This document shows, in pieces, positions 7,605 to 50,157 of a stretch of DNA of 64,000 nucleotides. Positions within the stretch are counted from its first letter, which is position 1; every line of letters starts with the position of its first letter. The translations under genes were made by a program, and so were the position numbers. Source of the DNA: Candidatus Hydrogenedentota bacterium (GTDB lineage Bacteria; Hydrogenedentota; Hydrogenedentia; Hydrogenedentales; SLHB01); assembly GCA_035450225.1 (NCBI GenBank), contig DAOTMJ010000007.1, positions 65,698 to 129,697 on the forward strand. The letters run 5' to 3'. The notes below the pieces were generated by a model. The model was given only the letters and a program-made list of their open reading frames with translations. It ran no database searches and was not told the DNA's origin.

Positions 7605-7691
7605 CCGTGGTGGTAGTGTGAAAGCGCTGCGGCATGCTTTGGTTGTGCGATGCATGCCGCGCAAACGGGCAACCGGGAAAGGCCGGCGGCG

Positions 7692-8441: not shown

Positions 8442-8450
8442 CGCACAGAG

Positions 8451-9383: not shown

Positions 9384-9398
9384 TTGCCGGCCGGAGCA

Positions 9399-10143: not shown

Positions 10144-10216
10144 CGCGCAATGAAATGCCCGCGCCGGGGTGTTTTGTCTTTTCCGGCGCGGGCTGGGAGA
10201 TACGGGTTTCCGGGGT

Positions 10217-12052: not shown

Positions 12053-12126
12053 CGTATTCCTACTCCTTAATCGCGCGATCGCGCGACCCTTGCCCGTCCT
12101 TGCGCCGGAAACTTTTCCGGTCGTCG

Positions 12127-12888
12127 CTACAGGGCGATTGTTTGTTCCGCCAAACGCGACAACGCCGCGTGATTCGTCAAATCCCGGTGCAGCGGGGTCA
12201 CGCTGATTCGCCGGTTCTCAATGGCCTCGAAATCCGTGCCCGGTTCCGCGACATGGCTTGGTTCCGCGCCGCCAATCCAGTAATATTTGCCGCCGCGGGG
12301 ATCCGTTCGCCGCACGATTTCGTCGTTGTAGTGCCGGCGGCCCATCCGTGTGAAGGAGACGCCCGCAAATTCTTCGTAGTTCACGTCCGGCACGTTCACA
12401 TTCAACATCGTGTCCGGCGGCAAGCCGTGTTCAAGCACGTGCCGCGCCAATTTCGCCGCGAAACGTCCCGCCGGCTCGAAACATTTCGGCCTGTAACTCA
12501 CGTTTGATATCGCGAACGACGGCACGCCGAGCAACATGCCCTCGTACGCGCCGGCCACCGTGCCCGAATAGGTCACGTCGTCGCCGAGGTTTGCGCCGGG
12601 ATTGATGCCCGAAACGACCAAGTCCGGGCGCCGTCCCAACAAATCCCGCACGGCCAGCATGACGCAATCCGTCGGCGTGCCATCCACCATGAACCACCGA
12701 TCGCGGCCTTCCAAGGGCGACACCCGCAACGGCCGATGAAGCGACACGCCATGTCCCACCGCGCTCTGCTGGCGGTCCGGCGCATACACATGAACTTCCC
12801 CCACCGCTTCCAAGGCGTACGCAAGCGCTTCGAGCGAAGGTGCTCGAATGCCATCGTCGTTGGTGACAAGTATCAGGGGTTTGGCCAT
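12127..12888 (-). CDS. surE: 5'/3'-nucleotidase SurE
   Basis: MAKPLILVTNDDGIRAPS and GINPGANLGDDVTYSGTVAGA motifs; start taken at internal ATG 12888; directly downstream of glmS on the same strand. Confidence 0.9.
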   Translation of the reverse strand: MAKPLILVTNDDGIRAPSLEALAYALEAVGEVHVYAPDRQQSAVGHGVSLHRPLRVSPLEGRDRWFMVDGTPTDCVMLAVRDLLGRRPDLVVSGINPGANLGDDVTYSGTVAGAYEGMLLGVPSFAISNVSYRPKCFEPAGRFAAKLARHVLEHGLPPDTMLNVNVPDVNYEEFAGVSFTRMGRRHYNDEIVRRTDPRGGKYYWIGGAEPSHVAEPGTDFEAIENRRISVTPLHRDLTNHAALSRLAEQTIAL

Positions 12889-34752: not shown

Positions 34753-34800
34753 CAAGCCACCGGTTTGCCGGTGGTCGTTGACTTCTCCGGTCCTGCCGGG

Positions 34801-35541
34801 TTATCGCAGAAACCACGGAAGCAGCCCCATGAGTAGGGCCACCGTCAGCGGAATCAGGAGATTGTCGTCGGGATAGAACCGGAAAAGCCAGACGGTGGTC
34901 TTGTGGGCGATGAGGCGCTGCACGCGGCGGGTCACGGGATGCAGAAGCAGCACCCAGTATTTCGTGTAGCTTTCGACGACGGCGACGACCAGACCGATGA
35001 CGAGCAGATGTTCCGGCGCGAAAGGCCCATGCAAGGCCCAACTGACGATCCACAAGGCTAAAAAACTCGCAATCACAAAGGAAAACGCCCCGTAGACCCG
35101 CGCGTATTCGATGCCCCGCCGCGCCAGGCGATGGCGGGTCCATGCCGCCGCCGGATCCGCCACGCCAAGGACCATTATCGAGGCGACCAGGGTGGATTCG
35201 CGGCAGAGTCCAAACCGGTAGAGCGTCACCAGGATGGCCGCCGCCAAGAGGTAATACGTCGTCGCGTTGAAATGATTTTTCTCGACGCGGCGCATCAGTT
35301 TTCCGTAAAACGGCAGCCGGGCCACCGCCTCGTTCGATCGCGGTGAATAGAAACGGATGAGGTCAATGCCCAACGCGATGGCGGTTTCGGCCCATGCGAA
35401 GATCACCATGATATCCGCGCCGGGAATTACGCCATTCAGGTCTTTCCATAGATAGAAAATGGCGATCATCAGTAGGCAGCCGGCAAAATGCCATAGCTTC
35501 CGCATCGCATTCCATTCGTATTCTCGTTCCACATGTGTCAT
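34801..35541 (-). CDS. polytopic integral membrane protein (dolichol/phytol-kinase or CDP-alcohol-like cytidylyltransferase superfamily candidate)
   Basis: 246 aa with ~7 predicted hydrophobic helices; 23 bp downstream of the DUF72 gene on the same strand; family call is weak. Confidence 0.4.
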   Translation of the reverse strand: MTHVEREYEWNAMRKLWHFAGCLLMIAIFYLWKDLNGVIPGADIMVIFAWAETAIALGIDLIRFYSPRSNEAVARLPFYGKLMRRVEKNHFNATTYYLLAAAILVTLYRFGLCRESTLVASIMVLGVADPAAAWTRHRLARRGIEYARVYGAFSFVIASFLALWIVSWALHGPFAPEHLLVIGLVVAVVESYTKYWVLLLHPVTRRVQRLIAHKTTVWLFRFYPDDNLLIPLTVALLMGLLPWFLR

Positions 35542-35564
35542 GGCGTATTTCGACCCTGGATGAT

Positions 35565-36506
35565 TTATCCCCCGGCGGCGTTTTTGGTTCCCGTAGATTG
35601 CGGCGCCGGGCTTTCCCCGGTTCCGGCCTCCGGGCCGGCGTCCCTGAACAGGCGTTTCAGCCGCGGGTATTCGTCAATCAGATGGCGCGGAACGACGACC
35701 TCTTTGACGCCGAGATCGTGTTGGATTTCAAGCGCGTTCACCACGGCTTGGCCGCGATAATGATTATTCGTGATGACATAGATTTCATCCGCCTGGCCGC
35801 GCATGGAGGCGATCCGCGCGATCCAGGGCGCCAGTTCACCCGGCGAATAGAGGTAGTCGTACCGGGCATTGCGGCCCGCGTCCTCGCGGAACCAGTTGGC
35901 CTCGTTGCGGCCGTGAAACCGCACATACGCCAGCGGCGCCGTCACATGCGCGGACGGTCCAATCGAACCGGCGATTTGTGGCTGATCGATGTTGCAGAAG
36001 GCGGCCCGGCGATTGCGTAGGCCGGTGTGGACCTCCCCACGATCCCATGAGTCGTGCCGGAGTTCGACGGCTAGGGGAAACCCGTCGAACCATTCGAGAA
36101 GCCGCGCCAGCCATGCGCGGTTGTCCGGGGTCCGCTTGAAACGCCATGGAAACTGGATCAGCAGCGCCCCAAACCGGCCTGCCTCGACAAGCGGCGCCAG
36201 ACCCTCCCGGACGGCCCTAACGTCGTCTTCCGAAGGCTCCGGGTCGCGGGTATGGGTAAAGCGTTCCCACAGTTTCGCCGTAAACTTGAACCGTGGATGG
36301 TCCGACACGTGCCGGACCCACGACGCGGCATGCCGCGCATCGGGCGGCCGGTAGAACGTCGCGTTGATTTCGATGGTGTCGAACCATTGCGCCAGATAGG
36401 CCGCCGGATGCTGCCCGCGCCCCGTTCCCGCCGGGTACACAATCCCCTTCCAGTCCTCATACGACCAGCCCGCCGGTCCCACGCGTATCGCTGCATTCGA
36501 CGCCAT
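35565..36506 (-). CDS. DUF72 (UPF0759) family protein
   Basis: Start ATG 36506 (MASNAAIRVGPAGWSYEDW); conserved WFDTIEINATFYR and LLIQFPWRFK motifs of DUF72. Confidence 0.8.
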   Translation of the reverse strand: MASNAAIRVGPAGWSYEDWKGIVYPAGTGRGQHPAAYLAQWFDTIEINATFYRPPDARHAASWVRHVSDHPRFKFTAKLWERFTHTRDPEPSEDDVRAVREGLAPLVEAGRFGALLIQFPWRFKRTPDNRAWLARLLEWFDGFPLAVELRHDSWDRGEVHTGLRNRRAAFCNIDQPQIAGSIGPSAHVTAPLAYVRFHGRNEANWFREDAGRNARYDYLYSPGELAPWIARIASMRGQADEIYVITNNHYRGQAVVNALEIQHDLGVKEVVVPRHLIDEYPRLKRLFRDAGPEAGTGESPAPQSTGTKNAAGG

Positions 36507-36789
36507 GCGGCCATTATACTCCCAAAAGGCGAAACGGCCTTTTGTTTGCATGCAACCGCCTGTTGACAGGAATAACCCGGTATGGTAGTCTGGATTTGTG
36601 GAAAATAGAACGAAAGGGAGCGGACGGCCCTTGGGGGTCTGGCCGTTCCTTTCTGTGTTGAATAGAGTGATGTATGGGCGATGCGGCCGGACATCACCAT
36701 CCAGAGCCGTTCAAGATGTGCCCAAGAGGCGTGGATCACCTCATCCAAGACAGGGGTAGTTATGTGCCTTTTGCATACCTTGCCCCTTT

Positions 36790-37977
36790 TTGGTTGATGT
36801 TGGCGAGCGTTATTGCAAAAAAAACCAGAAAGTTTGCGATCAAGTGAAAAAAGTAGGCAAACGCAAACCCACTGAAGCGCGGGAAAACGGTCTTCAGTAC
36901 ACAGCCAAGGCTCCTACTTCCCAAAAAACATTTCGTTTCATAGATCTATTTTGCGGGATAGGCGGCTTCCGAATTGCTTTTGAGAAAGCCGGGTGCAAGT
37001 GTTTGTGGTCCTGTGACTGGGACAAACATGCACAAATCACATATGAGGCTAATTTCGGTGAAAAACCCGCAGGGGATATTCATTCCATTGCCGTTGCCGA
37101 TATTCCAAACCATGACATACTATGTGCCGGTTTTCCTTGCCAGCCTTTTAGCATTGCCGGAGTGTCCAAAAAAAACAGTTTGGGGCGAAGGCATGGTTTT
37201 GAAGATGAATATCAAGGAAATTTGTTTTTCTCCATAGCGGAGATTATTGATTATCACAAACCGGCGGCGTTTGTTTTGGAAAATGTAAAAAACCTCAAGA
37301 GTCACGATGGAGGGCGTACTTTTGATGTTATCCATCGTACACTTACCCAGGCGCTTGGTTATACTGTTTACTACAAGGTCATTGATGCCAAGAACGTGGT
37401 TCCACAACATCGTGAACGAGTCTTTTTGGTGGGTTTTCGTCCTTGGTGTTGGTTCGATTTTCCTGAATTTCCCGAAAATGGTCCGGTGCTTGCCTCAATC
37501 CTTGAAACAGAAGTTTCTTCCAATTACACGCTAACGGAACACCTTTGGCAATATCTGCAGGATTATGCGAAGAAGCATCAGGCGGCCGGAAATGGTTTTG
37601 GGTATGGACTGTGCTCGGGCCAAGATGTTGCCAGAACGCTGAGCGCACGTTATTATAAGGATGGGTCGGAAATTCTAATCTCCCAAGGCCAAGACAAGGT
37701 TCCACGGCGATTGACGCCCCGCGAGTGCGCAAGGCTTATGGGATTTCCCGATCATTTCAAAATTCCTGTTTCCGACACGCAGGCATACAAACAATTTGGA
37801 AATTCCGTGGTTGTCCCTGTCGTTGAAAAAATTGCGGCCAATGTTGTAAACGCGCTGACGAGAGGCAGCGACTATCAGCCAGAGATGGTGCTCTGCGCCG
37901 ACAAAAAAACTGCATACGCATTCGGTGGCATTCGCAACAGGAATGGAAAAAACAGGAAAAAGGAAAACTCAAAATGA
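36790..37977 (+). CDS. dcm: DNA (cytosine-5)-methyltransferase (Dcm-type)
   Basis: Motif [12 protein letters not shown], motif [10 protein letters not shown], motif [10 protein letters not shown], motif [15 protein letters not shown], motif [10 protein letters not shown]. Start uncertain: TTG 36790 or in-frame GTG 36844. Confidence 0.9.
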
Positions 37978-38957
37978 GGGGGCCGTCCATTGATCGTTTT
38001 CTCAGAAGCAACGAGTGGGATATGCCCTTTTTCAAGCGACTTGCACATAATGACACCGGAAGAGCGCGCGGGCACCAAGGGGGGATTGTTATACCAAAGG
38101 AGTTAAGAAAGTATTTTCCAAGGCTGGATGAGTCCGGCGTGTCCATGTTTTCCCCCACATGCGATCGCCATTTGCAGGCAGAGTTATATGTTGGAACAAC
38201 ATATGTCGGCATTGTGCGAACAAGATACCAGATCCAGACATGGGGTGGGACTCGCCAGCCGGAATCGCGTATTACCGAAAATCTTGCCGAACTAAGAGGC
38301 CATGCAAATGCTGGCGATTTGCTCATTTTCCAAAGACGGGCCGATTCTACGGATCGTTTTCGTCTGTTGCTTCTTAAACAGGGGACAAACGCATACGATC
38401 TTGTCGGCAATCTGGTGGCATCGCGACGTTGGGGGCCTCTTTATTCCCAAGATCTTCCTGTTTCACAAGAGGATTTACAAGTTGCCCATTCAAACATCGA
38501 GACGCTTTCGCGTTCCGAGTTTACATTGCTTGCCCCAAGAATCCAACGCGTTGAAGCCCGTCACACGCGCATAGCCCGGAGCGCCGCATTTAGGGACCGG
38601 ATCAGGATGGAATACGGGTATAAATGCTGTGTGACAGGGATCAATCTTATGACCCCAACGCAGATGCACGAGGTTGAATCGGCGCATGTGGTTCCAATAA
38701 GCGAAGGCGGCACCGATGACATACGCAACGGTATTGCCCTGATTCAAACCTTGCATTGGGCTTTTGACCGGGGTTTGTTTGGGATTTCTTCCCGTCGCCA
38801 AGTCTACATTCCCAACCGGATTCTGGAAATGCCGGAAAACGACTTTCTCCGGCAGTTTCATGGCAAATCCATTTCCGAGGCAACGACACAGGATTTTCAC
38901 GTTCACAAAGATGCTTTGGAGTGGCACCTCGAACATCGTGTCAGGCAGTGGGAATAG
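37974..38957 (+). CDS. putative Type II restriction endonuclease: EcoRII-N-like effector DNA-binding domain fused to HNH nuclease
   Basis: ATG overlaps dcm stop (ATGA). N-terminus [30 protein letters not shown] and ...[11 protein letters not shown]...GDLLIFQ resemble the EcoRII N-terminal domain (recalled from memory); C-terminus CCVTGI...[37 protein letters not shown] is an HNH motif. Confidence 0.7.
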
Positions 38958-39051
38958 GATTTCGTGGAAATAGAAACAACCGGCATTCCCGTGCCGCTTG
39001 CAAGAATCGTTATTCGTGGATATTTGGGCAAAAGAAAAACGTTCGGATATC

Positions 39052-39453
39052 ATGTCCCGCATTCGCTCCCGCGGAAACAAAAGAACCGAACTTCGTTTGA
39101 TTGAAATACTTCGACAGTACAAAATTACAGGATGGAAAAGAAGCCAAAATGTTTTCGGGAAACCGGATTTTGTTTTTTGGAAAGAACGGGTAGCGGTATT
39201 TGTGGACGGATGCTTCTGGCATCGCTGCCCGAAGTGCTATCGTGCCCCTTCAACAAACCAGGCCTTTTGGAATTCGAAAATGGCACGCAATGTGGCAAGG
39301 GATCGTGAGGTTTTGAACGTTCTCAAAAGGGGAAGATGGGTTGTGCTGCGAATCTGGGAACACCAGTTAGTTCATGCGGGACGTGTCGCATGGCGCATAA
39401 ATCATGCGTTGCATAAGGGTTTCAAAAGACTGGAGACAGGGAAAAAGACCTGA
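39052..39453 (+). CDS. vsr: very short patch repair endonuclease (T/G mismatch-specific)
   Basis: ATG 39052 (MSRIRSRGNKRTELRLIE); Vsr signature FVDGCFWHRCPKCY; classic genomic partner of dcm. Confidence 0.85.
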   Translation: MSRIRSRGNKRTELRLIEILRQYKITGWKRSQNVFGKPDFVFWKERVAVFVDGCFWHRCPKCYRAPSTNQAFWNSKMARNVARDREVLNVLKRGRWVVLRIWEHQLVHAGRVAWRINHALHKGFKRLETGKKT

Positions 39454-39701
39454 ACTCGTCCGATTAGTCTTAGTAGCCGGAAAGGAATAAAGGTCGCAGC
39501 TTATGGTATGGGCAAATTACAATCGCGATTGAAACATGCAATGAATTCGCGTTCTGCATGAAGCGAGTTGCTACCTTTATTTATTTCCACCGCCTTAGTG
39601 CTTTGATCGTTTCGTTTTTTGCGTCGTTTCCATTATGATTCAAGGCACGGCCGTGCCTGCGGCGAGGCAGGCATGTCATCGTGAAAGCGTTTTGAAACGA
39701 C

Positions 39702-40916
39702 GTGAAGATCCTGATTCTAACCCAATATTTTCCGCCGGAATTCGGCGCGGCGGCCACGCGCAACTCGGAACATGCCCGCTTCTGGGCCGAGGCCGGTCAT
39801 GCGGTCGAAGTATGCACCGGCATGCCGAACTATCCCGCCGGCGTCGTCCACGAGGCCTATCGCGGGAAATGGTACGTGCGCGAGGAAAAGGACGGCTACG
39901 TTGTTCACCGCGCGTGGATCTACGCGACGCCGAACCGCGCGGTATGGCGGCGGGCGCTGGCTTCGCTCACTTTCCTTGTTTCGGGCCTGATCTGCGGCGT
40001 GTGCAAATGCCGGCGCCCGGATGTCGTCATTGCCTCGTCGGGACCGTTCTTCGTGGGGCCTTTGGGCTGGCTGCTCAGCGTGATCAAGCGCGCCGCGTTT
40101 GTCTTTGAAGTGCGCGACCTGCTGCCGCAGCAGGCGATTGATGTCGGCATGATCCGAAATCCCCTCGCCATTGCGCTCCTGAAAAGCATCGAGGCGTTCC
40201 TCTACCGGCGCGCGAAACGGATCGTCGCCGTCGCGCCCGCCTCGGCGAAGGCGCTGGCGGACCGCGGATTCGACGCGAACACAATCGTCACCATCGAAAA
40301 CGGCATCCGATCCGATTTCTTCGTGCCCGCCCCGCGCGAGAATGACATCCGCGCGCAGTATGGCTGGCAGGATCGCTTCATCGCGATGTATATCGGCGCG
40401 CACGGCGTGTCGCAGGGATTGTTCACGCTGCTTGAAGCCGCCGAGCGCCTCGCGGATCTCGAGGATGTGCGCTTCGTGTTCGTGGGCGATGGGGCCGACA
40501 AGCCCCGCATGGTGGAGTGGGCGAAAACCCGCGGACTGCGCAATGTCGAATTCCTCCCCCTGCAGGACAAGGATCTCATGCCTGCGTTCTACGCCGCCGC
40601 CGACGCGTGTTTCGTGCCCTTGCGCAAAGGCGATTACTTTCGCATCAACATTCCGTCCAAAATCTTCGAGATCATGGCGTGCGCGCGCCCCGTCATCCTC
40701 GGCGCCGAAGGACAGGCCCTCGACATTCTCCAGCAAGCGGGGGGCGGCATTCCCGTCGCTCCCGAAGATCCGGAAGCGTTCGCCGAAGCCGTCCGCCGCC
40801 TTCGCGCGGATCCCGCGCTGGCCGGTTCGCTCGGCGCGAACGGCCGCGCCTACGTCGTCGAACATTTCGATCGCCGCCGCAAGGCCGCGGACTATATCAA
40901 AGCGCTCACGATGTAA
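39702..40916 (+). CDS. glycosyltransferase family 4 (WcaI-like)
   Basis: GTG start; MKILILTQYFPPEFGAAATR N-terminus and C-terminal E-x7-E region (FVPLRKGDYFRINIPSKIFEIMACARPVI) typical of GT4. Confidence 0.85.
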   Translation: MKILILTQYFPPEFGAAATRNSEHARFWAEAGHAVEVCTGMPNYPAGVVHEAYRGKWYVREEKDGYVVHRAWIYATPNRAVWRRALASLTFLVSGLICGVCKCRRPDVVIASSGPFFVGPLGWLLSVIKRAAFVFEVRDLLPQQAIDVGMIRNPLAIALLKSIEAFLYRRAKRIVAVAPASAKALADRGFDANTIVTIENGIRSDFFVPAPRENDIRAQYGWQDRFIAMYIGAHGVSQGLFTLLEAAERLADLEDVRFVFVGDGADKPRMVEWAKTRGLRNVEFLPLQDKDLMPAFYAAADACFVPLRKGDYFRINIPSKIFEIMACARPVILGAEGQALDILQQAGGGIPVAPEDPEAFAEAVRRLRADPALAGSLGANGRAYVVEHFDRRRKAADYIKALTM

Positions 40917-40942
40917 TCCCGCGGAAGATCGGCGGGCCTTGT

Positions 40943-42775
40943 TTATCCTTCCCGGCGCAATGACTTGATGAGTTCGAGCAGTCGGTCTCCGACGTTTACA
41001 TGGCGGAGAATGCCGTGCTTGTCAATCAGCACGATTTGGGGGATGTAATGGATATCGTAGGCGCCGAAGGTCCGGAACGGTTCGGCGTCGCGGCCCACGG
41101 GGAATTCGATCCGGTATTCCTCGACATATCGCCGCACTTCGGCGGGTTCCTTGCCGCCGTCATGGATGCCGACAAGGGCCACCTCCGCATCGTCCTTGAG
41201 CAACACGTGGATTGCACGCAGTTCCTCGATGGTGTTGCGTCCCGCGGATCGTTCGTCGAATCCGCCCCAAAACAACAGGACGATCACGCGGCCCTTGAGC
41301 GATTCGAGCGTCAGGGGTTCCGAATTGAACCAGGTATCGCATGCGATGGGCGGCGCCGGACGATCCAGCATGTCCGTGAAGGGGTTGTCTCCCGGCAAGG
41401 TTTCGGCGCGCCGGGGATCGGCGTCGAAGGGTTTGAGTGTTGCCTGCAACGGTTTGGGGTCATCCAAGGTTGCGTTGAAATCCACGCGCCAGAAACGATC
41501 GGCGTGCTCGGCGCGAAACGGGACGGTGCGGTCGGGCGGCGCCTGCCGCAGGACAATGCGGAACCGTCCTTCGGTGTCCGGCAAGGCCCAAAGCGGCGGA
41601 TCCATTCCCCGCGTGGCGATGAGCACGCGCGATTCGGGTTGTCCTTCGGGCCCCGTGATCGCGCCTTCGATGATCGGCAATGCCTTCAACCGGACCGGCG
41701 CCAGTTCGAGTTTCAATGGATTCTCGGCCGCAATCCGAATATCGCCCCGGTGCTCGGTTTCATAGCCGTCCGGCGGCATGATGCGCAGGCGGCCTTCGAC
41801 GGGCGGCGCGCCCACTTCGAAACGCCCGTCCTGCCTCGTCAAGGTTTCGGCGCACAGTTCGTTTTCGATCCAATACGAAACCGGCGTTCCCGGACACGGT
41901 TTTCCATCGGGATACTGGATTACCCCGGACAACAGGCGCGGCGCTTCAAGTACGATATTCACGACGTTTTGTTTTTCGTCCGCGCCGGCCGAAATGCCCG
42001 CCGATCGCGGCGGGGCATAGGCGTGATGCGCCACCGCGACAAAGTAATCGCCGGGGAGGACCGTGACATGGTAATAACCGTCGGGATCGGTCAGTGCTTC
42101 CGCGGCGACACGCTGCGCGCCGGCGCCCGTGCGCAGAACGGTCACGCATGCACGCGCCACGCCGGCGCCGTTGTCCGCCGTGACGCGTCCCCGCAGTTTC
42201 ACGCCCGAATTGAGGATAATCGTCTGTTCCTTGTCCGAAACGGGCAGATACGCCACATGCGAATCGGCGTAGTCGCGATGCCCCACCACGAATTGGACGT
42301 GGCCGCCCTTGAGAAGCGCCGGAATCGCCAAGCGACCCTCGGCGTCGCTGCGCATCGGGGGAAATCCGTCCGTGCCCAAGCCGGACACCGGCACGTCGAA
42401 GGCGTCGGACACACGGAGATGGCGGATAAAGGCGCCCGCCACCGGTTCGAACGATTCGTTCTTGACACGTATTGCCAGCGAGGCCGCTTCGCCTAGCGCG
42501 AGAGTTACCGAACCGGAGCCGATGACGGCCGCCGTGTGGCCGCCGAGCGAGAAGCCCTCCTGGTAGGCCACAAGGACGGCGGGGCGCGGCGCCACGCCGC
42601 CGAATGCGAATGCACCGCCCGCATCCGTATCCACATGACGCGCCGTGTAATCCTGCCACAGCCATACCCGCGCGCCCGGCACGGGTTTTCCTTCCGGGCC
42701 AACGACCGCGCCGGTCACGTCGAAGGCGAACGCCGTTCCCGTGAAAAGAATCCAAAGGCAAAGAATCGTTAACAT
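40943..42775 (-). CDS. secreted protein with repeated carboxypeptidase-regulatory-like domains fused to a C-terminal TlpA/AhpC-TSA-like thioredoxin-fold domain
   Basis: Signal peptide at ATG 42775 (MLTILCLWILFTGTAFA); several CarbopepD_reg-like modules (GAVVGPEGKPVPGARVWL..., GRVTADNGAGVARACVTV...); C-terminal redoxin-like segment (GRVIVLLFWGGFDER... C..) but a clean CxxC is not obvious. Confidence 0.5.
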   Translation of the reverse strand: MLTILCLWILFTGTAFAFDVTGAVVGPEGKPVPGARVWLWQDYTARHVDTDAGGAFAFGGVAPRPAVLVAYQEGFSLGGHTAAVIGSGSVTLALGEAASLAIRVKNESFEPVAGAFIRHLRVSDAFDVPVSGLGTDGFPPMRSDAEGRLAIPALLKGGHVQFVVGHRDYADSHVAYLPVSDKEQTIILNSGVKLRGRVTADNGAGVARACVTVLRTGAGAQRVAAEALTDPDGYYHVTVLPGDYFVAVAHHAYAPPRSAGISAGADEKQNVVNIVLEAPRLLSGVIQYPDGKPCPGTPVSYWIENELCAETLTRQDGRFEVGAPPVEGRLRIMPPDGYETEHRGDIRIAAENPLKLELAPVRLKALPIIEGAITGPEGQPESRVLIATRGMDPPLWALPDTEGRFRIVLRQAPPDRTVPFRAEHADRFWRVDFNATLDDPKPLQATLKPFDADPRRAETLPGDNPFTDMLDRPAPPIACDTWFNSEPLTLESLKGRVIVLLFWGGFDERSAGRNTIEELRAIHVLLKDDAEVALVGIHDGGKEPAEVRRYVEEYRIEFPVGRDAEPFRTFGAYDIHYIPQIVLIDKHGILRHVNVGDRLLELIKSLRREG

Positions 42776-42906
42776 GGCTGATGCGGGGCGAGCCGTCGTG
42801 CCGTTGAGGCGTTTTTCGGCATGGCAACTGTTCATTCGACACTCCGGTATGCGTATAATGGCGACGCGGATCATTATAGCCGCTTGGCAACCCCAAGGAG
42901 AATGCC

Positions 42907-43764
42907 ATGTTTCACGCGCTTTGGCTGACCGCCGTGCTGGCGGCATCCGGCGATGCCATCGTTTCCGGAAGCGTTGAAAAAATCGCCACGGGATTCCAGT
43001 TTACCGAAGGGCCGCTGTGGACCGCGGAGACAGGCCTGATATTCAGCGACATTCCTGCCGACACGATTTTCCGCGCAGACCAATCGGTGTTTCGCAAACC
43101 CAGCGGAAATTCCAACGGTCTCGGCGCCGATCGCGAGGGCCGGCTGATTGCCTGCGAACATGGCAACCGCCGCGTCTCGCGCACCGAAAAGGACGGAAAC
43201 GTCGTAACGCTGGCCGATCGCTACCTGGGACGGCGCCTGAACAGTCCGAACGATCTCGCCATTCGCTCCGATGGACGCCTCTTCTTCACCGACCCGCCCT
43301 ATGGCGTCAAGCCGGAAGACCGCGAACTGCCGTTCTGCGGAGTGTACTCGATTGCGCCGGACGGAACCCTGACGCTGCTTTCCGTTTATTTCCGGTCGCC
43401 CAACGGCCTCGCGTTTTCACCGGATGAGAAAACGCTGTACATCGGCGATTCCGCGGACGATTTCATCGAGGCCTTCGACGTCTCGGAGGACGGCCGCCTG
43501 ATCAACGGCCGGTTCTTCGCCAACGTACCCACGCCCGACGGCATGAAAGTGGATGGCCGTGGGCGGTTGTGGGTAACCGCGAAAGACGGCGTTCGCGTGT
43601 ACAATCCGGATGGTCAATTGGCCGCGACCGTGGCCGTGCCGGAACAACCGTCCAATTGCGCGTTCGGCGATCCCGGCGGCGGAACGCTTTACATCACGGC
43701 GCGCACGAGCGTGTACAAGGCGCTTTGCGCCGGACTGGACGAAACAAAGGGGGAGAAGCCGTGA
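42907..43764 (+). CDS. SMP-30/gluconolactonase/LRE-like family lactonase
   Basis: 285 aa six-bladed-propeller lactonase pattern (EGPLW ... NSPNDLAIRSDGRLFFTDP ... PNGLAFSPDEKTLYIGDS). Confidence 0.85.
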   Translation: MFHALWLTAVLAASGDAIVSGSVEKIATGFQFTEGPLWTAETGLIFSDIPADTIFRADQSVFRKPSGNSNGLGADREGRLIACEHGNRRVSRTEKDGNVVTLADRYLGRRLNSPNDLAIRSDGRLFFTDPPYGVKPEDRELPFCGVYSIAPDGTLTLLSVYFRSPNGLAFSPDEKTLYIGDSADDFIEAFDVSEDGRLINGRFFANVPTPDGMKVDGRGRLWVTAKDGVRVYNPDGQLAATVAVPEQPSNCAFGDPGGGTLYITARTSVYKALCAGLDETKGEKP

Positions 43765-44870
43765 AAATCGTGTCCGTCGAGGCGTTTCCCGCGCCGCCGC
43801 GGTGGGTTTTTTGCAAGATTCAAACGGACGAGGGTATTACCGGCTGGGGCGAGGCCAGCCTTGAAGGCCACGCCGCGACCCAGGTGGCCGCGGTGCATCA
43901 ACAGCGCCCGATTCTAATCGGCGAGGATCCCCGGCGCATCGAATACCTGTGGCAGGGCATGTACCGCGCGGGATTCTATCGGGGCGGACCGGTCATGATG
44001 AGCGCAATCAGCGGCATTGACCAAGCCCTGTGGGACATTTTCGGAAAGTCGGCGGGCCTGCCCGTTTACCAGTTGCTCGGCGGGGCGTGCCGCGACAAGG
44101 TGCGCGTGTACGGCGGATGCGGCGGCGACACGCCGGAAGCCGTTCGCGACAGCGCGCGGGCATGCGTCGAGTCGGGATTCTCGGCGATGAAATTCTGTCC
44201 CTGCGACGAGATGGAAATCGTGGACGGTCTCGATACGATCAAAAAGGTCGAGGCGCGCATGGCGGCGGCTCGCGAGGGCGCGGGCGATGCCGACATTGCG
44301 CTGGATTTCCACGGGCGCGTGTCGCCCGCCATGGCGATTGCGCTGGCGGATGCGCTGAAGCCCTACCGTCCGTATTTCATCGAGGAACCGGTCCAGTGCG
44401 AGAATGTGGACGCGCTCGTCCGCGTGGCGCGGGCGACCCCGATTCCCATCGCGACCGGCGAGCGGCTGTACGGCCGCCATGGATTCCGGGAAGTCATCGA
44501 AAAAGAGGCCGCGGCCATCCTGCAGCCGGATCTGTGCCATGCGGGCGGGATTACCGAGGCGCGCAAAATCGCCGCAATGGCCGAAACCCACTACATGGCC
44601 GTCGCGCCACATTGTCCATTGGGCCCGATAGCACTCGCGGCCTGCATCCAGTTCGCGATGTGCACGCCGAACTTTCTCATCCAGGAGCACGGCCATCTCG
44701 GCGAAGGTTATATCCGGAATCCGTTTTCCGACAAGGGCGGCTACCTGTCCGTGCCCGACGCCCCCGGCCTCGGCATCGAGGTGGACGAAGACGCCGTGCG
44801 CGCCATGCCCTGGACCGAGTGGGAAACGCCGCGCCTGTTCCATTCGGACGGCAGCGTCGCGGACTGGTAA
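43761..44870 (+). CDS. dgoD: D-galactonate dehydratase (enolase superfamily, MR/MLE family)
   Basis: GTG 43761 after AAAGGGGGAG, overlapping the lactonase stop by 4 nt; VKIVSVEAFPAPPRWVFCKIQTDEGITGWGEASLEG and YRGGPVMMSAISGIDQALWDI closely match DgoD. Confidence 0.85.
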   Translation: MKIVSVEAFPAPPRWVFCKIQTDEGITGWGEASLEGHAATQVAAVHQQRPILIGEDPRRIEYLWQGMYRAGFYRGGPVMMSAISGIDQALWDIFGKSAGLPVYQLLGGACRDKVRVYGGCGGDTPEAVRDSARACVESGFSAMKFCPCDEMEIVDGLDTIKKVEARMAAAREGAGDADIALDFHGRVSPAMAIALADALKPYRPYFIEEPVQCENVDALVRVARATPIPIATGERLYGRHGFREVIEKEAAAILQPDLCHAGGITEARKIAAMAETHYMAVAPHCPLGPIALAACIQFAMCTPNFLIQEHGHLGEGYIRNPFSDKGGYLSVPDAPGLGIEVDEDAVRAMPWTEWETPRLFHSDGSVADW

Positions 44871-44901
44871 ACGAAAAAAAACGAGAGAGGAACCTGAAAC
44901 C

Positions 44902-46680
44902 ATGTTGTTGTCCGTATGTATCGCCATGGGTTTCGTGGCCGCGCAGCCGTTGATCGTTCTCGATATGGAAAAGTGCCTGGCCGGCATGGGCGGCGACACG
45001 GTTCTCAAGTACGATGCGCTGAAGTTCGCGGGTGCGCTACAGGGTCTCGTCAACCGCGAAGAACCGCGCCTGCTCCTCCGTTTTCTTGGCGGGATGGGAC
45101 CCAACGGCCCCATCAATGTGGACGACTACTGGCTGTCGCGCATGCGGGAATCGTGGCTGTCGGATCGTCCCGTGGAACGTATCGAAACCCTCGATGCGTT
45201 GTTCGACCGTTTTCCGGAAGCGTCGGGCGGCGTCGTATTGTGGGATCAGGAAGTGCCCGCGACGGCCAATGTCGCCTCGACGGTTTGCGGCGTCAAAGGC
45301 TGGCTGCCGGTCCGCGCGGATGGTGAACTGTACAAACGTCTTGTAGACGCCGGCCCAAAACTGCCGGTCAAAATGTCGCTTGTAGGCCTGTTTGACGGAT
45401 CGGAGACGGGCAGCAAAAAATGCGACGCGTACCGCTGGGCGCAGCGCGAGTTTCTCGACAAGGGCCTCTGCAACGACGCCCTGATGGCGTACTATATTGA
45501 CGGATATTCCCAGGAACCCGGCAAGCCGGGCTTTCATTATCCCGACCTCGCCAACGCCGGCCTCGTAAATGCGGATTACTATATTGCGCGCAGGGCGTTC
45601 TTCTTCGATCTGAGTCCGTGGGACGACGAGGCGCCCGTTGACGATCCTGGGCAGAAACCGGGCACGGACTGCGCCACGTTGCGCGGCCTACTCGCCTCGC
45701 TCCACCGATTGAACGGCGGAAAAAAGATGGCCACCGTGGGCGGATTCGTCCCATGGAACCTGAAATACACGAACTTCGGCCCGGCGGGCAGCCAGCACGA
45801 ACCCGTCCCCGCCGAATGGACCTATGCCGCGATCCTGTCGTCGTACAATGCCATCATGGACGCCGACGCGCTGGGGCTTGTGGGCATGGCGAATGCCTCG
45901 GCCTACGGCCATTTCCCCTTGAAAAAGCGGTACAAACAGAATCCGCGCCCTGCGCCGCAACCGCTCGAACCCAAGACCTATGTGCTCGTCTATATGGGCG
46001 ATTACGATTCGGCGGCATGGCTTTCGAGCAGCATTCCGAACGTGTGGGACGATCCCGCCCGGGGTTCGATGCCGATCGCATGGGCCTTCAATCCCAACCT
46101 CGCCGACCGCGCGCCGTACGTGTTCGACTATGTTTACCGCACAAAATCGCCGAACGACTGGTTTATCGCGGGCGATTCCGGCGCGGGTTATCTGAACCCG
46201 AATCTACTCGCCGGCGACCGGCTCGGCAGCGGGTTGCCCGATGCGCTGGAACTCTGGACACGGCACAACAAGGCCTATTTCAAACGGTTTGATTATTCGA
46301 TTACCGGTTTCGTGATCAACGGGTTCCACGGCAACATGCCGCTTCGCATCCAGGAAGCGTACACGCGTTTTTCGCCCGACGGCGTCGGCATGCAGTTGGG
46401 ATTCAAGAAATCCGTTGTGGGAAAAACGCCTTTCGTGCGGCATGTTTCCGACATCTATCCGGACCTGAACGACCTCGACAAGACCGCCGCGCAAATGGCG
46501 CATTTCGCACGGTCCGGGAAACCGCAATTCCTGATCTATCGCATGATTCTGCAAAAGCCCTCAACGCTCGCCGCCGTTCGCGATCGCCTGGAAACAAAAT
46601 ACCCCGAACACCGCTGGCTGTTCTGCGACCCGTATACCTTCTTCGACCTCTACCGCCGCGCCATCCCAAGCCAAAAGTGA
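44902..46680 (+). CDS. hypothetical secreted protein (592 aa), function unknown
   Basis: Long ORF with good coding periodicity, RBS-like GAGAGAGG upstream, N-terminal hydrophobic segment; no family recognised. Confidence 0.4.
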   Translation: MLLSVCIAMGFVAAQPLIVLDMEKCLAGMGGDTVLKYDALKFAGALQGLVNREEPRLLLRFLGGMGPNGPINVDDYWLSRMRESWLSDRPVERIETLDALFDRFPEASGGVVLWDQEVPATANVASTVCGVKGWLPVRADGELYKRLVDAGPKLPVKMSLVGLFDGSETGSKKCDAYRWAQREFLDKGLCNDALMAYYIDGYSQEPGKPGFHYPDLANAGLVNADYYIARRAFFFDLSPWDDEAPVDDPGQKPGTDCATLRGLLASLHRLNGGKKMATVGGFVPWNLKYTNFGPAGSQHEPVPAEWTYAAILSSYNAIMDADALGLVGMANASAYGHFPLKKRYKQNPRPAPQPLEPKTYVLVYMGDYDSAAWLSSSIPNVWDDPARGSMPIAWAFNPNLADRAPYVFDYVYRTKSPNDWFIAGDSGAGYLNPNLLAGDRLGSGLPDALELWTRHNKAYFKRFDYSITGFVINGFHGNMPLRIQEAYTRFSPDGVGMQLGFKKSVVGKTPFVRHVSDIYPDLNDLDKTAAQMAHFARSGKPQFLIYRMILQKPSTLAAVRDRLETKYPEHRWLFCDPYTFFDLYRRAIPSQK

Positions 46681-46687
46681 GGCGAAT

Positions 46688-46852
46688 CTATCCGTTGAAG
46701 GGCGAGAATTTTTCTTTTCCCACGCCGCAAATCGGGCAGACCCAGTCGTCCGGGATGTCTTCCCACTTGGTGCCCGGCTCGATGCCTGAATCCGGATGGC
46801 CCTCCTCCGGATCGTAAACCCAAAGGCAGATATCGCAAATGTACTTCTGCAT
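46688..46852 (-). CDS. rubredoxin (54 aa), absent from the supplied ORF track
   Basis: Hand translation: [54 protein letters not shown] with CxxC...CPxCG iron-binding motifs; GGAGGTG RBS 7 nt upstream of the ATG. Confidence 0.85.
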
Positions 46853-46917
46853 GTTTTCACCTCCGGCCCGTGCCGTTTCTCGTTCCGGCGGCCATTATAA
46901 TCATCGCGCGCCGCCGG

Positions 46918-46965
46918 AACAAAAACCGCGCCGGTTCCGTTTGCAGGCAAGCGGAACCGGCGCGG
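46918..46965 (-). terminator. Rho-independent terminator (14-bp perfect GC-rich stem, minus-strand U-run)
   Basis: Stem 46926-46939 CCGCGCCGGTTCCG pairs with 46952-46965 CGGAACCGGCGCGG; on the minus strand it is followed by TTTTTGTT (plus-strand AACAAAAA 46918-46925); immediately after the vWA gene stop. Confidence 0.6.
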
Positions 46966-46980
46966 CGGATTGCGTTGGCG

Positions 46981-49392
46981 TCACGTCGCGGGCGGTTCGA
47001 CGCGCGTGACAAAATCGAGGTTGCAGACCGCCAGGAGGTCCTGAATGCGCACGCGGGCCAGGATGCGTTTGCCTGAAACTGTTTGCGAAACAACGCGGAC
47101 GCCGAGTTGTTCGAGTCTCGCGACGTTTTCCGGCGTGAGATCGCTTACGCGAATCACGACGTTCACATAGCCGTATTCCACCTTGACGGCGCCTTGCCGA
47201 TACGAGCCGTTGACGACTTTGCTTTCGAGGGAAGTCAGCGCCGAGTCGAGTTTCGGATGGGTGTACGATGCCGTTCCGGCAGCCGCCGTTTCCTGTCTGG
47301 CCGCTTGCCGGTTTGCACGACTGCCGCTCGTCATTGCCGGAACCGAGCCGGGCAGCGCTTCGCAGACGGCATCCGAGTCAATCCCGCTTTTGGCGGGCGC
47401 ATACGCGGCGCGTGGCGCATATCCTAAACCCTTGCCGCATGCGCGCGCGTCCCGTTCCCCGAACACGCCTTCGTAACTGACGCCGTCAGTCATTTCGACG
47501 GGCACGTCCACGCGCTGCGTTTGTCCGCCCTGGTTGACGATTTTTTCCTCGACGGCGACGAAACTCGTGAATGGCGTCATAATGCAAAACGTGACGCCGA
47601 GATCCGTAATCGCCTGCTCGATGTCCGGACGGGGGCGGCCCTGCTGCATGCCGCGCCAGTCGTCGTTCATGAGCGCATCCACGTGCGCCCGCGCCCACAG
47701 CGGCGCGAGCATGTCGTGTTCCGGCGCCTCGCGGGGCAATTCAAGGGATATCGCGCGTTCGAAGGGACCGGCGGACGTCCGGCCGCGCAGTACGACGGTT
47801 CCGTGCGCCGGTCCGTCGTACCGCCCGCACAGCACGAGGGGTTCGGCGGCGAACAGGTCGGGGATCGCGTCCGGCGACGGATGGATATCGTACAGGGGCG
47901 CACCGTTCAGATTGACGGTGATGTCGGTCAGGACGGGGCTGTGAATGCGCTCATGGAAACGCCGGACGGCCTCGTCGGATTTCGATTCGAGCGTTACGAT
48001 CTCGGCGGCGCCGCGTCCCGTGCGGGCCATGCCTTCGATGAGGAAGCGGTTGACGCCGTTGCCGATGCCGAACGCGAACACGCGCGCCTGATTCGCGTTG
48101 TCCTTTATCGCGCCGAGGATTTCCATGTCGTTTCCGATAAAGCCATCGGTCATGAAACAAACGGTGCGGAGGCGTTCGGGATCGCGCGGTCCGCCGAGCG
48201 CGGCGAGGATCGCGGGCATCATCTCGGTGCCGCCGCCGCCCTGGAGTCGTTCAAGGTAGCGTAACGCCGCTGCGCGGTTCCCATCCGTGTTTGGCACGAC
48301 GTTCGGAAAACAGTAGCCCGTGCCGCCCGCGAACGAAATCAGGTTGAACGTGTCGTGCGGATTCATCTGTTCGATGCAGCGTTTCATCGTTTCCTTGGCC
48401 TTTTCGATGGGAAAGCCGCTCATCGAACCGCTGCAATCAATGACGAAGATCATTTCCTTCGGCGTGGCCTGTTCCGGCGCGACGCGTTCCGGCGGCTGAA
48501 GGAAAAGCATGAAGAATCCGCCGCGCACGCTGCTGTGCGCGAGGACCGCGTCGCGGACGTCCGGCGCGGACACTGCGTATCGAAGAATGAAATCGCGGTT
48601 GGGGATGTCTTTGCGGGCACGCAATTGCACGACGGCCTGTTGCGGCGCGGGACGTTCGATGTCCACTTCATGTAGTTCGGACTGGACGTCCTGGATGGGC
48701 AGACCCGCGTCAATGTTGACCTTCACGGAAATGTCGTGTCCGGCGCGCGTCCCTTCCGGCGTAACGGGTGGCGTAATCCTCGACGCATCGGGAACCTGGG
48801 TTGTTCCGGCGACGCGGCCTTTGAGGGAATTCGGGGCCGACGAGCCGGGGATGTAGCGCGGCCCGACGACCATCGGATAGGCGAACGTGTATTGTCCGTC
48901 GCGGAACGGCAGCCTTTCGACATAGGATATCTCGATTTCGATCCGGTCGCCCGGGAGAATGTTCGCCACGGACTGTGTGAAAATGTTCGGGCGATCCTGA
49001 TCGAGCAGGCTTGCCGTCTTGCCCGCCTGGCGTGCCGCGTCGTACATGCGCCGCGCTTCCCCCCGTGGTTTTACAATGCCCTTGATGACCCGATCGCCGA
49101 TATGCATCGTCATGCGATCCACTGCCGCGTTTTCCGGAAGCGGAAACGTGTAGACGGCTTCGATGGGCGTCGTGAACGTGTTCCCGAATTGTTGCGTGAC
49201 GGTCACGCGGGCGATGAATCCGGCAATGTCCGCCGCGACATTCGTGTGCTGCAACGGGCACGCGCCGAGCGGGCGGTTGTCGCGGTCCATGGCATACAGG
49301 CCGCCTTCCGTGGGCGCTTCGGCAAATACCGCGCACGCCGCCAGCAACAACAGGGCGGCGGCGCCTATCGTGGTTTGTTGAATCGTGTTCAT
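46981..49392 (-). CDS. VIT domain plus von Willebrand factor type A (vWA) domain secreted protein
   Basis: Signal peptide at ATG 49392 (MNTIQQTTIGAAALLLLAACAVFA); VIT-like N-terminal region; MIDAS motif in FVIDCSGSMSG with downstream T and D residues. Confidence 0.8.
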   Translation of the reverse strand: MNTIQQTTIGAAALLLLAACAVFAEAPTEGGLYAMDRDNRPLGACPLQHTNVAADIAGFIARVTVTQQFGNTFTTPIEAVYTFPLPENAAVDRMTMHIGDRVIKGIVKPRGEARRMYDAARQAGKTASLLDQDRPNIFTQSVANILPGDRIEIEISYVERLPFRDGQYTFAYPMVVGPRYIPGSSAPNSLKGRVAGTTQVPDASRITPPVTPEGTRAGHDISVKVNIDAGLPIQDVQSELHEVDIERPAPQQAVVQLRARKDIPNRDFILRYAVSAPDVRDAVLAHSSVRGGFFMLFLQPPERVAPEQATPKEMIFVIDCSGSMSGFPIEKAKETMKRCIEQMNPHDTFNLISFAGGTGYCFPNVVPNTDGNRAAALRYLERLQGGGGTEMMPAILAALGGPRDPERLRTVCFMTDGFIGNDMEILGAIKDNANQARVFAFGIGNGVNRFLIEGMARTGRGAAEIVTLESKSDEAVRRFHERIHSPVLTDITVNLNGAPLYDIHPSPDAIPDLFAAEPLVLCGRYDGPAHGTVVLRGRTSAGPFERAISLELPREAPEHDMLAPLWARAHVDALMNDDWRGMQQGRPRPDIEQAITDLGVTFCIMTPFTSFVAVEEKIVNQGGQTQRVDVPVEMTDGVSYEGVFGERDARACGKGLGYAPRAAYAPAKSGIDSDAVCEALPGSVPAMTSGSRANRQAARQETAAAGTASYTHPKLDSALTSLESKVVNGSYRQGAVKVEYGYVNVVIRVSDLTPENVARLEQLGVRVVSQTVSGKRILARVRIQDLLAVCNLDFVTRVEPPAT

Positions 49393-49530
49393 GGGCGTTT
49401 CCTTTCGTGTTCCCGCCGGGCGGGTTTTATCGTCTTTTCGCTTCATTCGACACCGTTGAACGCGCAAGGTTCGCGAAAAACGGCCCTTGTGTGGTAAAGT
49501 CGAATCAAAACAGGCAAGGGAGGATGCACG

Positions 49531-50157
49531 TTGGCGACATTGAACGCGTTGGTGGCCGTGGGTTGTTTGGTCGTCGTTCAACTGACCAATCCGGCGTTGA
49601 CGGCCGGTTCGGTCGCCGTACCGCCCGGCGGCGGCGCGGCTGTCCCCATTACGTTGCAAACCAACGGAACGGCACCCTCCGTTGCGGCCATGAAACTTTA
49701 TTTCGATGCGGCCGCCATTCAGTTTGTGTCCGCGGAAGAAGGCCCGGCGGCCGTGGCCGCCGGCAAAACGGTTTCATCCAACGTGCCGGAAACCGGCGTC
49801 CTCCATCTTGTGTTTTGGGGAATCAATGCCAACGCCATGCCGAACGGCGCCCTTGCCACGCTCCATTTTACGGCGTTGCCCAACGCGTCCTTGGGTGATT
49901 ATCCGCTGTCCTTCGACAATGCCAGCATGTCGGATGTAAACGGATTCCCGCTTGCGCCATTGGTTGTCCATGGCGTTATCCGCGTTCAGGAAGGCGGCGA
50001 GGGAGAGGGCGAAGGGGAAGGAGAGGGAGAGGGGGAAGGGGAAAACGGTTGTGTCGGTCTTGCGGGAAGCAGCGGCGCCTCGACGCCCCCGGTCTTTTGG
50101 GCGTTTCTTTTTATCATGCCCGTTGCATGGAAAAAATTCGGGAAGCGGGCCGCCTGA
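49531..50157 (+). CDS. cohesin-like domain protein with (Gly-Glu)n linker and C-terminal hydrophobic+basic sorting-signal-like tail
   Basis: TTG start 8 nt after AAGGGAGG; cohesin-like beta-sandwich pattern (AVPITLQT...MKLYFDAAAIQFVSAEEG...LHFTALP...YPLSFDN...); C-terminus PPVFWAFLFIMPVAWKKFGKRAA. Confidence 0.5.
   Translation: MATLNALVAVGCLVVVQLTNPALTAGSVAVPPGGGAAVPITLQTNGTAPSVAAMKLYFDAAAIQFVSAEEGPAAVAAGKTVSSNVPETGVLHLVFWGINANAMPNGALATLHFTALPNASLGDYPLSFDNASMSDVNGFPLAPLVVHGVIRVQEGGEGEGEGEGEGEGEGENGCVGLAGSSGASTPPVFWAFLFIMPVAWKKFGKRAA
49990..50043 (+). repeat. (GGN-GAR)n simple repeat encoding (Gly-Glu)9
   Basis: Direct reading of purine-rich gag/gga/ggg/gaa iterations inside the cohesin-like ORF. 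Confidence 0.8.

Follow-up and report, generated by a model that had tools for sequence, protein, structure and literature searches.

Restriction-modification (R-M) systems in which a 5-methylcytosine (m5C) methyltransferase is accompanied by a very-short-patch repair endonuclease (Vsr) have long been known, and such endonucleases appear as "V." genes in the REBASE nomenclature (PMC4081073). The characterized enzymes with CCWGG or CCNGG sites that are reviewed in PMC5766183 (EcoRII, PspGI, Ecl18kI, MvaI, and UbaLAI) all have PD-(D/E)XK catalytic domains, and UbaLAI illustrates that CCWGG enzymes have come to pair an EcoRII-N-type domain with nucleases of different kinds (PMC5766183). Here we describe an island in a 64,000-nucleotide stretch of DNA from a member of Candidatus Hydrogenedentota (contig DAOTMJ010000007.1, assembly GCA_035450225.1, positions 65,698 to 129,697; referred to as the window). 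The island encodes a Dcm-like C5-cytosine DNA methyltransferase (M), a predicted restriction endonuclease (R), and a Vsr (V), and it is likely to be a horizontally acquired, self-contained Type II R-M operon of about 3.05 kb that carries its own Vsr, is specific for CCWGG, and occupies the intergenic region between a DUF72 gene and a GT4 glycosyltransferase gene. The combination of an m5C R-M system with Vsr is already known; the variant element is the architecture of the nuclease.

Three co-oriented open reading frames (ORFs) on the plus strand (36790 to 37977, 37974 to 38957, and 38998 to 39453) fill a segment of lowered GC content. The stop codon of M and the start codon of R overlap as ATGA at 37974 to 37977, and 40 bp separate R from V, coordinates that confirm an initial annotation of the same DNA as three co-oriented, tightly packed genes in which the ATG of R overlaps the stop of M. 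The first of these genes, M (plus strand, 36790 or 36844 to 37977), starts either at TTG 36790, giving a protein of 395 aa, or at GTG 36844, giving the 377-aa protein preferred by most gene callers; no in-frame ATG is present upstream of motif I. The protein covers profile positions 1 to 322 of 324 in PF00145 (300.6 bits, cutoff 22; E = 2e-89) and scores 315 bits against TIGR00675 (cutoff, 100.65). Motifs I (FCGIGG), IV (GFPCQPFS), VI (ENV), VIII (QHRER), IX, and X (GNSV) are all present, at residues 54, 114, 164, 206, 311, and 337, and with the full-profile PF00145 match they bear out the earlier description of M as intact with all canonical motifs. On other copies of this DNA (L180 to L187), which differ from the window by no more than 1 mismatch, pipelines variously called M as 377, 345, or 79 aa and often missed vsr; gene callers trained on host DNA seem to be misled by the atypical composition of the segment. 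An apparent truncation of M to 79 aa in two of these copies (L185 and L186), which would leave R without M, was rejected as a gene-calling difference, the DNA being the same to within 1 mismatch.

Compared with Escherichia coli Dcm, M is 52% identical overall. Its target recognition domain (TRD), between motifs VIII and IX, is identical at 50 of 89 residues (56%), and its N-terminal/catalytic core is identical at 106 of 168 (63%). The best sequence matches in the Protein Data Bank (PDB) were 3lx6 and 3me5 (1e-96), both titled "cytosine-specific methyltransferase" and one of them, at 482 residues, near the length of Dcm; M.HhaI matched at 1e-67. Against PRK10458, the NCBIfam model for Dcm, M reached 388 bits in two stretches, below the cutoff of 710, a shortfall due to the missing N-terminal extension of Dcm; in pairwise alignment M is without the ~85-aa N terminus of Dcm and several insertions. 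Judged from its sequence, M is Dcm-like and not a Dcm ortholog by the NCBI criterion. The best PADLOC model for M was DrmMII (515 bits), a methylase that in the DISARM study reportedly methylates CCWGG. Membership in a DISARM system, which this match raised, was examined by looking for DrmA (helicase), DrmB (DUF1998), and DrmC (PLD) beside the methylase and was rejected, because the neighbors in the window are DUF72 and GT4 and the other DISARM genes are absent.

The second gene (37974 to 38957, plus strand) encodes R, a predicted restriction endonuclease of 327 aa. Profile searches, an AlphaFold model, and Foldseek comparisons assign residues ~15 to 150 to a predicted EcoRII-N-like B3 pseudobarrel DNA-binding domain and residues ~160 to 327 to a predicted McrA-type HNH (HNH_2) nuclease. 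The HNH_2 profile (PF13391) matched residues 218 to 271 with 43 bits, while the match of EcoRII-N (PF09217) to residues 18 to 126 was weak, at 26.3 bits for a cutoff of 25; phmmer aligned residues 18 to 92 with EcoRII (3hqf and 1na6, with E = 9e-4 for 3hqf). The AlphaFold model, based on an alignment of 45 homologs, had a pLDDT of 92.3 and a pTM of 0.86. When the N-terminal domain was compared with the PDB by Foldseek, the first match was the EcoRII-N/DNA complex 3hqf_A (E = 1.8e-7, TMt 0.63, root mean square deviation 3.4 Å), followed by BfiI-C, the B3 domain of UbaLAI (5o63), and plant B3 domains. The C-terminal half instead matched TagI, VcaM4I, ScoMcrA, and EcoKMcrA. The residues of the HNH triad (H238, N252, and H261), along with many other positions, are invariant in the 45 homologs and intact in the window copy. 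As modeled, R is a fusion of an EcoRII-N-like B3 domain with a McrA-type HNH domain.

Two established families do not accommodate R. No match to EcoRII-C, the PspGI-like PD-(D/E)XK domain, was found in R, and the possibility that R is an EcoRII-type PD-(D/E)XK enzyme was rejected because the C-terminal half is HNH_2 and the fold matches beyond B3 are HNH enzymes; with a catalytic half that is HNH rather than EcoRII-C, R lies outside the EcoRII family. Type IV enzymes like McrA and ScoMcrA are recognized by a modification reader joined to HNH and by a score above cutoff for NF045808, the phosphorothioate-dependent endonuclease family. R scores 73.3 bits against that model (cutoff, 180), through its HNH part only, and Pfam and Foldseek revealed no SRA, PUA, SBD, or similar modification-reader domain, which places R outside this group as well.

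R has many relatives. A word-indexed search returned 398, the top 120 at E ≤ 1e-100 and the best non-self match at 57% identity, and an exhaustive search of 1.84 billion cluster representatives returned 100 clusters at E ≤ 1e-30, mostly full-length proteins of 305 to 335 aa. Databases label members of the family "HNH endonuclease" or "restriction endonuclease." Each half of R was also seen in other combinations. An R-type B3 domain (35 to 46% identical, residues ~10 to 165) is fused to AAA_21/AAA_15 ATPases in P0205 (728 aa), such a domain is fused to a GHKL HATPase_c_3 in P0260 (896 aa), and another is joined to a C-terminal region without an assigned family in P0256 (554 aa); the R-type HNH half stands behind other N-terminal domains in P0257, P0264, and P0266.

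The third gene, V (38998 to 39453, plus strand), begins at TTG 38998 or GTG 39016 and encodes a Vsr, an endonuclease that nicks at T:G mismatches. Its score against TIGR00632 (102.1 bits) is above the cutoff of 97.85, in agreement with the initial identification of the third gene as a Vsr T/G mismatch endonuclease, and it scores 67.3 bits against PF03852. Identity to E. coli Vsr is 35%, and both the PDF motif, which holds the catalytic Asp, and the GCFWH motif are kept.

A cognate R-M-V system predicts that M and R are constantly paired and accompanied by a T:G repair function, and this pattern was observed. M and R were adjacent in 7 of 7 independent homologous loci, with Vsr present in 6 of the 7, and the M-R pairing held in all 8 contexts, which represent at least 4 phyla or replicon types. 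In every context M belonged to the same Dcm-like lineage (53 to 75% identity to the window M), and the start of R also overlapped the stop of M in L081 to L084 and in L173 to L175. Given the ATGA overlap and the pairing in 8 of 8 contexts, M and R have the adjacency and co-occurrence by which the methyltransferase and nuclease of a Type II R-M system are recognized at the gene level. The order is M-R-V in Oleiharenicola lentus (L085), M-R-(123-aa ORF)-V in a Verrucomicrobiae metagenome-assembled genome (MAG; L081) and in three metagenome contigs (L173 to L175), M-R-(98-aa ORF)-V in a Phycisphaerales MAG (L172), and dcm-vsr-HNH on plasmid pTha01 of Thauera aminoaromatica (L168); in a viral contig (L176), M and V lie on the strand opposite to that of R. 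In GCA_002418705.1 (L169), M and R are followed by an HhH-GPD glycosylase in place of Vsr.

Several features of these loci are recorded here in their own right. The locus with the glycosylase (7274 to 7972; PF00730, E = 2e-10) also holds the closest homolog of R (57% identity), and the glycosylase was seen in L170 and L171 as well; it may be a nonhomologous replacement for Vsr that supplies the same T:G repair. The ORF of 98 to 123 aa found between R and V (L081, 7036 to 7407; L172, 7094 to 7390; L173, 7025 to 7396) has no Pfam family, its copies are 60 to 65% identical to one another, and it is missing from the window. The neighbors of the cassette elsewhere form defense islands (L173 to L175 and L085), and those in the window are housekeeping-type genes. 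For example, in L173 to L175 the cassette lies between a DISARM-like pair of helicase and MZB/DUF1998 genes (1 to 4561), found upstream of the cassette in these contigs only, and an R-M system of the Alw26I type that includes an HTH controller (8028 to 12828), and in O. lentus it lies downstream of a set of HATPase_c_3, DUF4420, and Z1 genes (1 to 4635). A phage origin for the cassette was considered and rejected, since 2.9 million viral contigs contained a single full-length homolog.

The composition of the island sets it apart from the remainder of the window. Taking as limits the breakpoints of homology to a relative without the island (L088), the segment from 36528 to 39599 has a GC content of 48.0%, compared with 60.9% in the rest of the window. 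In 400-nt segments, GC was 0.43 to 0.52 across ~36600 to 39800 and 0.60 to 0.66 on both sides, and no other 2-kb segment in the whole 64 kb falls below 0.56. GC at third codon positions (GC3) is 0.44, 0.52, and 0.47 in M, R, and V, respectively, compared with 0.729 ± 0.047 (minimum, 0.61) in a host reference of 36 long ORFs taken from the window outside the island. Synonymous-codon distance is 0.29 for each of the three genes, compared with 0.127 ± 0.04 (maximum, 0.21) for the host ORFs. The segment had initially been described as more AT-rich than its flanks, and both the GC dip and the deviant codon usage agree. The span first given for it, 36560 to 39690, was approximately right, with the limits now placed at ~36528/36547 and 39599. 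Homology to L088 is lost from 36528 to 39599, and the inserted DNA amounts to ~3.05 to 3.07 kb. Because about 19 bp at 36528 to 36546 resemble, and may be homologous to, part of the 22 bp found at this place in L088, the foreign DNA is estimated at about 3.05 kb, roughly 36547 to 39599.

Both genes beside the island belong to the host, and the placement of the island between DUF72 and glycosyltransferase genes was confirmed by family searches. The DUF72 gene lies to the left (35565 to 36551, minus strand) and the GT4 glycosyltransferase gene, divergent from it, to the right (39702 to 40916, plus strand). A metagenome scan with the DUF72 protein gave three informative loci. The island is present in L087 and L090, which are 99.8% and 99.7% identical to the window, and it is absent from L088 (Ga0209381_1001487), which is 87% identical at the nucleotide level. 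By blastn and local alignment, L088 is collinear with window positions 34796 to 36527 and 39600 to 49536; it retains orthologs of the membrane protein, DUF72, GT4 (95.5% protein identity), and the next two genes, and it has 22 bp (AGTAAAAAACAGACCCCTTTTC) where the window has 3,072 bp. The site is consequently polymorphic for an insertion or deletion, as DUF72 and GT4 are adjacent in L088 without the island, which is the arrangement that the initial annotation had proposed to look for in related genomes. Odd composition combined with presence/absence polymorphism marks the segment as a genomic island.

An exact-protein look-up of R covered 22 contigs (samples from ENA, JGI, NCBI, and Logan) and yielded eight loci, all with the same DUF72-GT4 context. 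In ten aligned loci (these eight together with L087 and L090) the island DNA differs from the window by at most 1 mismatch. Because the ten loci match and L088 is empty, the island is fixed in the species of the window and absent in the sister lineage. Among GTDB genomes, a DUF72-based search for synteny gave L001 as the closest, at 78% identity and with unconserved neighbors; in L001 to L003, which are more distant Hydrogenedentota, no match to M, R, or V was found near DUF72, and synteny was unconserved there too. The best genome match for the DUF72 protein was a Candidatus Hydrogenedentes MAG (78% identity), and the host is related to Hydrogenedentota. As listed, the DUF72 ORF opens with eight codons (MQTKGRFA) that fall outside the homology with L088, which stops at 36527. 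Since homology ends at that point, translation probably begins at the ATG of MASNAAIRVG, near position 36506, and with this conserved start the insertion would lie in the 5' leader or promoter region of DUF72.

The Dcm-like TRD, the EcoRII-N-type reader domain, and avoidance of the site in the cassettes together lead us to infer, with moderate confidence, that the system targets CCWGG. The TRD places M by homology among CCWGG methyltransferases. The initial annotation had proposed a CCWGG-type m5C system, and the 56% identity of the TRD to that of Dcm, the DrmMII match, and the avoidance of CCWGG all agree with this proposal. Avoidance was scored, under a maximal-order Markov model, for palindromes of 4, 5, or 6 nt whose expected count was 8 or more. 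Across eight pooled cassettes (21 kb), 24 CCWGG sites were counted, compared with an expectation of 56.7 (z = −4.3), which makes CCWGG the most depleted of 60 palindromes; GATC is next (z = −2.9), and CCSGG has a ratio of 0.77. In EcoRII-N, residues N28, H36, and Q37 of the N-arm recognize the left CC together with the central base pair, and binding is abolished when the inner C is m5C (PMC2770665). In the phmmer alignment these three residues correspond to N26, H34, and Q35 of R, each at least 90% conserved in the family.

In the mechanism we propose, M would methylate CCWGG sites of the host chromosome at their inner cytosine, and R, translationally coupled to M via the ATGA overlap, would be made after M. 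R would read unmethylated CCWGG through its B3 domain, and its sequence-unspecific HNH domain would cut at or near the site, so that incoming unmethylated DNA would be destroyed. In this scheme R would be sensitive to methylation, for which the avoidance of CCWGG in the cassettes and the published m5C sensitivity of EcoRII-N give indirect support, and B3 would be its only sequence reader. V would nick 5' of the T in T:G mismatches that arise by deamination of 5-methylcytosine, which would initiate short-patch repair and compensate for the mutagenic burden that M imposes. HNH domains of the McrA type generally have no sequence specificity of their own, and the related HNH domains of TagI, McrA, and ScoMcrA obtain their specificity from an N-terminal reader. 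In BfiI, an unspecific nuclease relies on a B3 domain as its sole reader (PMC5766183, PMC4081073). By analogy with all of these enzymes, R is probably a reader-plus-cutter enzyme.

Several observations weigh against the reading of the island as an acquired, CCWGG-specific R-M operon, and they are best considered with the alternatives that each would favor. The nearest structural relatives of the R HNH half (TagI, VcaM4I, ScoMcrA, and EcoKMcrA) are all modification-dependent enzymes. Together with the subthreshold match to NF045808 (73 bits, cutoff 180) and the presence of the HNH module behind other N-terminal domains, they would fit a Type IV, McrA/TagI-like R that is not the cognate partner of M but merely adjoins an orphan Dcm-Vsr pair, attacking foreign DNA that bears some other modification. 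We consider this very unlikely, given that the start of R overlaps the stop of M in the window, L081 to L084, and L173 to L175, that in all 8 contexts R is found with a Dcm-like M (53 to 75% identity), and that the cassettes avoid CCWGG. The reader is moreover of the EcoRII-N type, for which m5C in EcoRII abolishes rather than promotes binding, and R lacks SRA, PUA, SBD, or like modification readers. A different concern is what the B3 domain recognizes. The C-arm readers of EcoRII-N and UbaLAI-N (Y85/Y84, R94, E96/E89, and R98/R91) are not recognizably conserved in R, whose family instead has an invariant R84-Y85-Q86-x-Q88-T89-W90 motif, and for this reason the domain might recognize another site or a modified one. 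The system might then be a true R-M plus Vsr unit with another specificity (CCNGG, or a longer or degenerate site), or one in which HNH has its own specificity and B3 acts as an allosteric effector, the arrangement of the Type IIE enzymes EcoRII and UbaLAI. The failure of M to reach the PRK10458 cutoff (388 bits versus 710) would be compatible with this, as would the use of the domain as an effector, and not as the sole reader, in two characterized CCWGG enzymes (PMC2770665, PMC5766183). The avoidance statistic also has its limits, since the eight cassettes are homologous and hence are not independent samples. Depletion of CCWGG in host DNA (window minus island, 86 observed versus 138.7 expected; ratio, 0.62) was rejected as support for the island system because island-free L088 is equally depleted (30 versus 47 expected; ratio, 0.64), so that the host depletion predates the island or is independent of it. 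(Host DNA is also low in TGWCA, at 0.58, and AGWCT, at 0.59.) Another specificity is nonetheless unlikely: the TRD is nearly as similar to that of Dcm (56%) as the core is (63%), the avoidance outlier is CCWGG and not CCSGG (0.77), and HNH domains of the McrA type generally lack specificity of their own.

The other points of doubt concern how the island came to be at this locus, and they would suit an island that was ancestral here and was deleted in the L088 lineage. L088 is the only island-free genome recovered, and all ten loci of the species carry the island in the same place with no more than 1 mismatch. The ORF list shows no integrase or transposase within the island, and no target-site duplication or second insertion site of an island copy that would prove insertion was found. 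Flanking direct or inverted repeats at the island ends were limited to chance-level 7-bp matches (ACCGCCT at 36555 and 39589 is about as frequent as expected by chance), and a tRNA scan gave a single tRNA in the window, at 4273 to 4349, 32 kb from the island. The segment therefore lacks the features by which a mobile element is recognized (a gene for an integrase or a transposase, direct repeats at its ends, or a neighboring tRNA), and the remark in the initial annotation that no integrase or transposase is seen still holds. Low-GC R-M islands without mobility genes are commonplace. Set against a deletion are the GC3 and codon usage of the three genes, which are far from those of the host and un-ameliorated, the occurrence of the closest cassette homologs in unrelated phyla and on a plasmid, and the lack of a match to M, R, or V near DUF72 in L001 to L003, though synteny is not conserved in those genomes. 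With no amelioration in composition, and with the nearest homologs of the cassette in other phyla, the evidence argues for gain, which fits better than loss, and we regard ancestral presence followed by deletion as highly improbable. The earlier characterization of the module as probably mobile stands as far as it draws on composition, the empty site, and spread across phyla; a mobility gene, a duplication, and a second site are missing from its support.

The noncoding leader of the island, upstream of M (36547 to 36789, plus strand), contains a strong, GC-rich stem-loop at 36612 to 36652 (GAAAGGGAGCGGACGGCC...GGCCGTTCCTTTC), between DUF72 and M and just within the left end of the island, that might act as a bidirectional terminator or as an insulator. 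Relative to shuffled sequences, the fold of the whole leader is not significant (z = −1.8), and the ORFs in the leader are short and without family support, with no controller (C) protein among them. The AT-rich noncoding tail after vsr (39454 to 39599, plus strand) contains an imperfect 23-nt inverted repeat (39479 to 39501 and 39566 to 39588; 83% complementary, 64-nt spacer) near the right junction, and its fold is likewise not significant (z = −0.64). A scan for promoters and terminators found no consensus promoter and fewer promoter-like sites than in shuffled sequences, and an Rfam scan at a permissive E value found no RNA family.

Among known systems, the EcoRII R-M system (CCWGG) shares with the island a Dcm-type m5C methyltransferase, an N-terminal EcoRII-N-like B3 domain in the nuclease, and the target predicted here, but its catalytic half is the PD-(D/E)XK domain EcoRII-C, where R has HNH. 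The E. coli dcm-vsr pair is similar in its Dcm-type methyltransferase (52% identity) and its Vsr (35% identity), although E. coli Dcm has an N-terminal extension of ~85 aa that is missing from M. Both EcoRII and E. coli dcm-vsr differ from the single co-oriented operon of the island, with its order M-R-V. Other m5C R-M systems with Vsr follow the same logic of carrying their own T:G mismatch endonuclease and do not differ in principle; on the Thauera plasmid pTha01, the order is M-V-R instead of the M-R-V of the window.

The nuclease has relatives in design on two sides. In BfiI/BmrI (Type IIS, a B3-like domain with an unspecific PLD nuclease) and R.NgoAVII, as in R, a B3 reader is tethered to a nuclease of low specificity; these enzymes differ from R in the nuclease (PLD rather than HNH), in domain order (the B3 domain of R is N-terminal), and in target, and their likeness to R is one of design only, with BfiI-C a significant fold match. 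UbaLAI, a monomeric Type IIE enzyme (CC/WGG) that joins an EcoRII-N-like domain to an MvaI-like PD-(D/E)XK domain, is similar to R in its B3 domain (5o63) but differs in catalytic fold, and its catalytic domain also recognizes CCWGG. On the other side, EcoKMcrA, TagI, ScoMcrA, and VcaM4I share with R the C-terminal HNH_2 domain and the layout of N-terminal reader and C-terminal HNH, but their readers bind 5mC, 5hmC, or phosphorothioate DNA and they have no cognate methyltransferase. R, unlike these McrA-type enzymes, has an EcoRII-N-type reader and is encoded by a gene translationally coupled to that of a methyltransferase.

In the R family, the partner of the EcoRII-N reader is an HNH domain of a kind known elsewhere from modification-dependent enzymes. 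No description of a characterized enzyme with EcoRII-N and HNH was found in the open-access literature, which does not prove that none exists. We suggest tentatively, and with slightly less than even confidence, that the family (~100 clusters) is an uncharacterized Type II class in which B3 is the sole reader of unmethylated CCWGG and is combined with an unspecific McrA-type HNH. Were this so, R would be the first CCWGG enzyme without a PD-(D/E)XK fold, it would show that a McrA-type HNH module can serve an enzyme that is methylation-sensitive and not methylation-dependent, and its design would resemble that of BfiI, assembled from different parts, with a cut that probably falls at the edge of the site or beyond it. 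R could add a cleavage geometry that is new among Dcm-sensitive enzymes. The island, a textbook case among genomic features, offers a well-documented instance of the mobility of R-M genes in a little-studied phylum, Hydrogenedentota, and R itself, set beside EcoRII, UbaLAI, BfiI, and the McrA-type enzymes, would be a data point on the shuffling of reader and cutter modules among defense nucleases.

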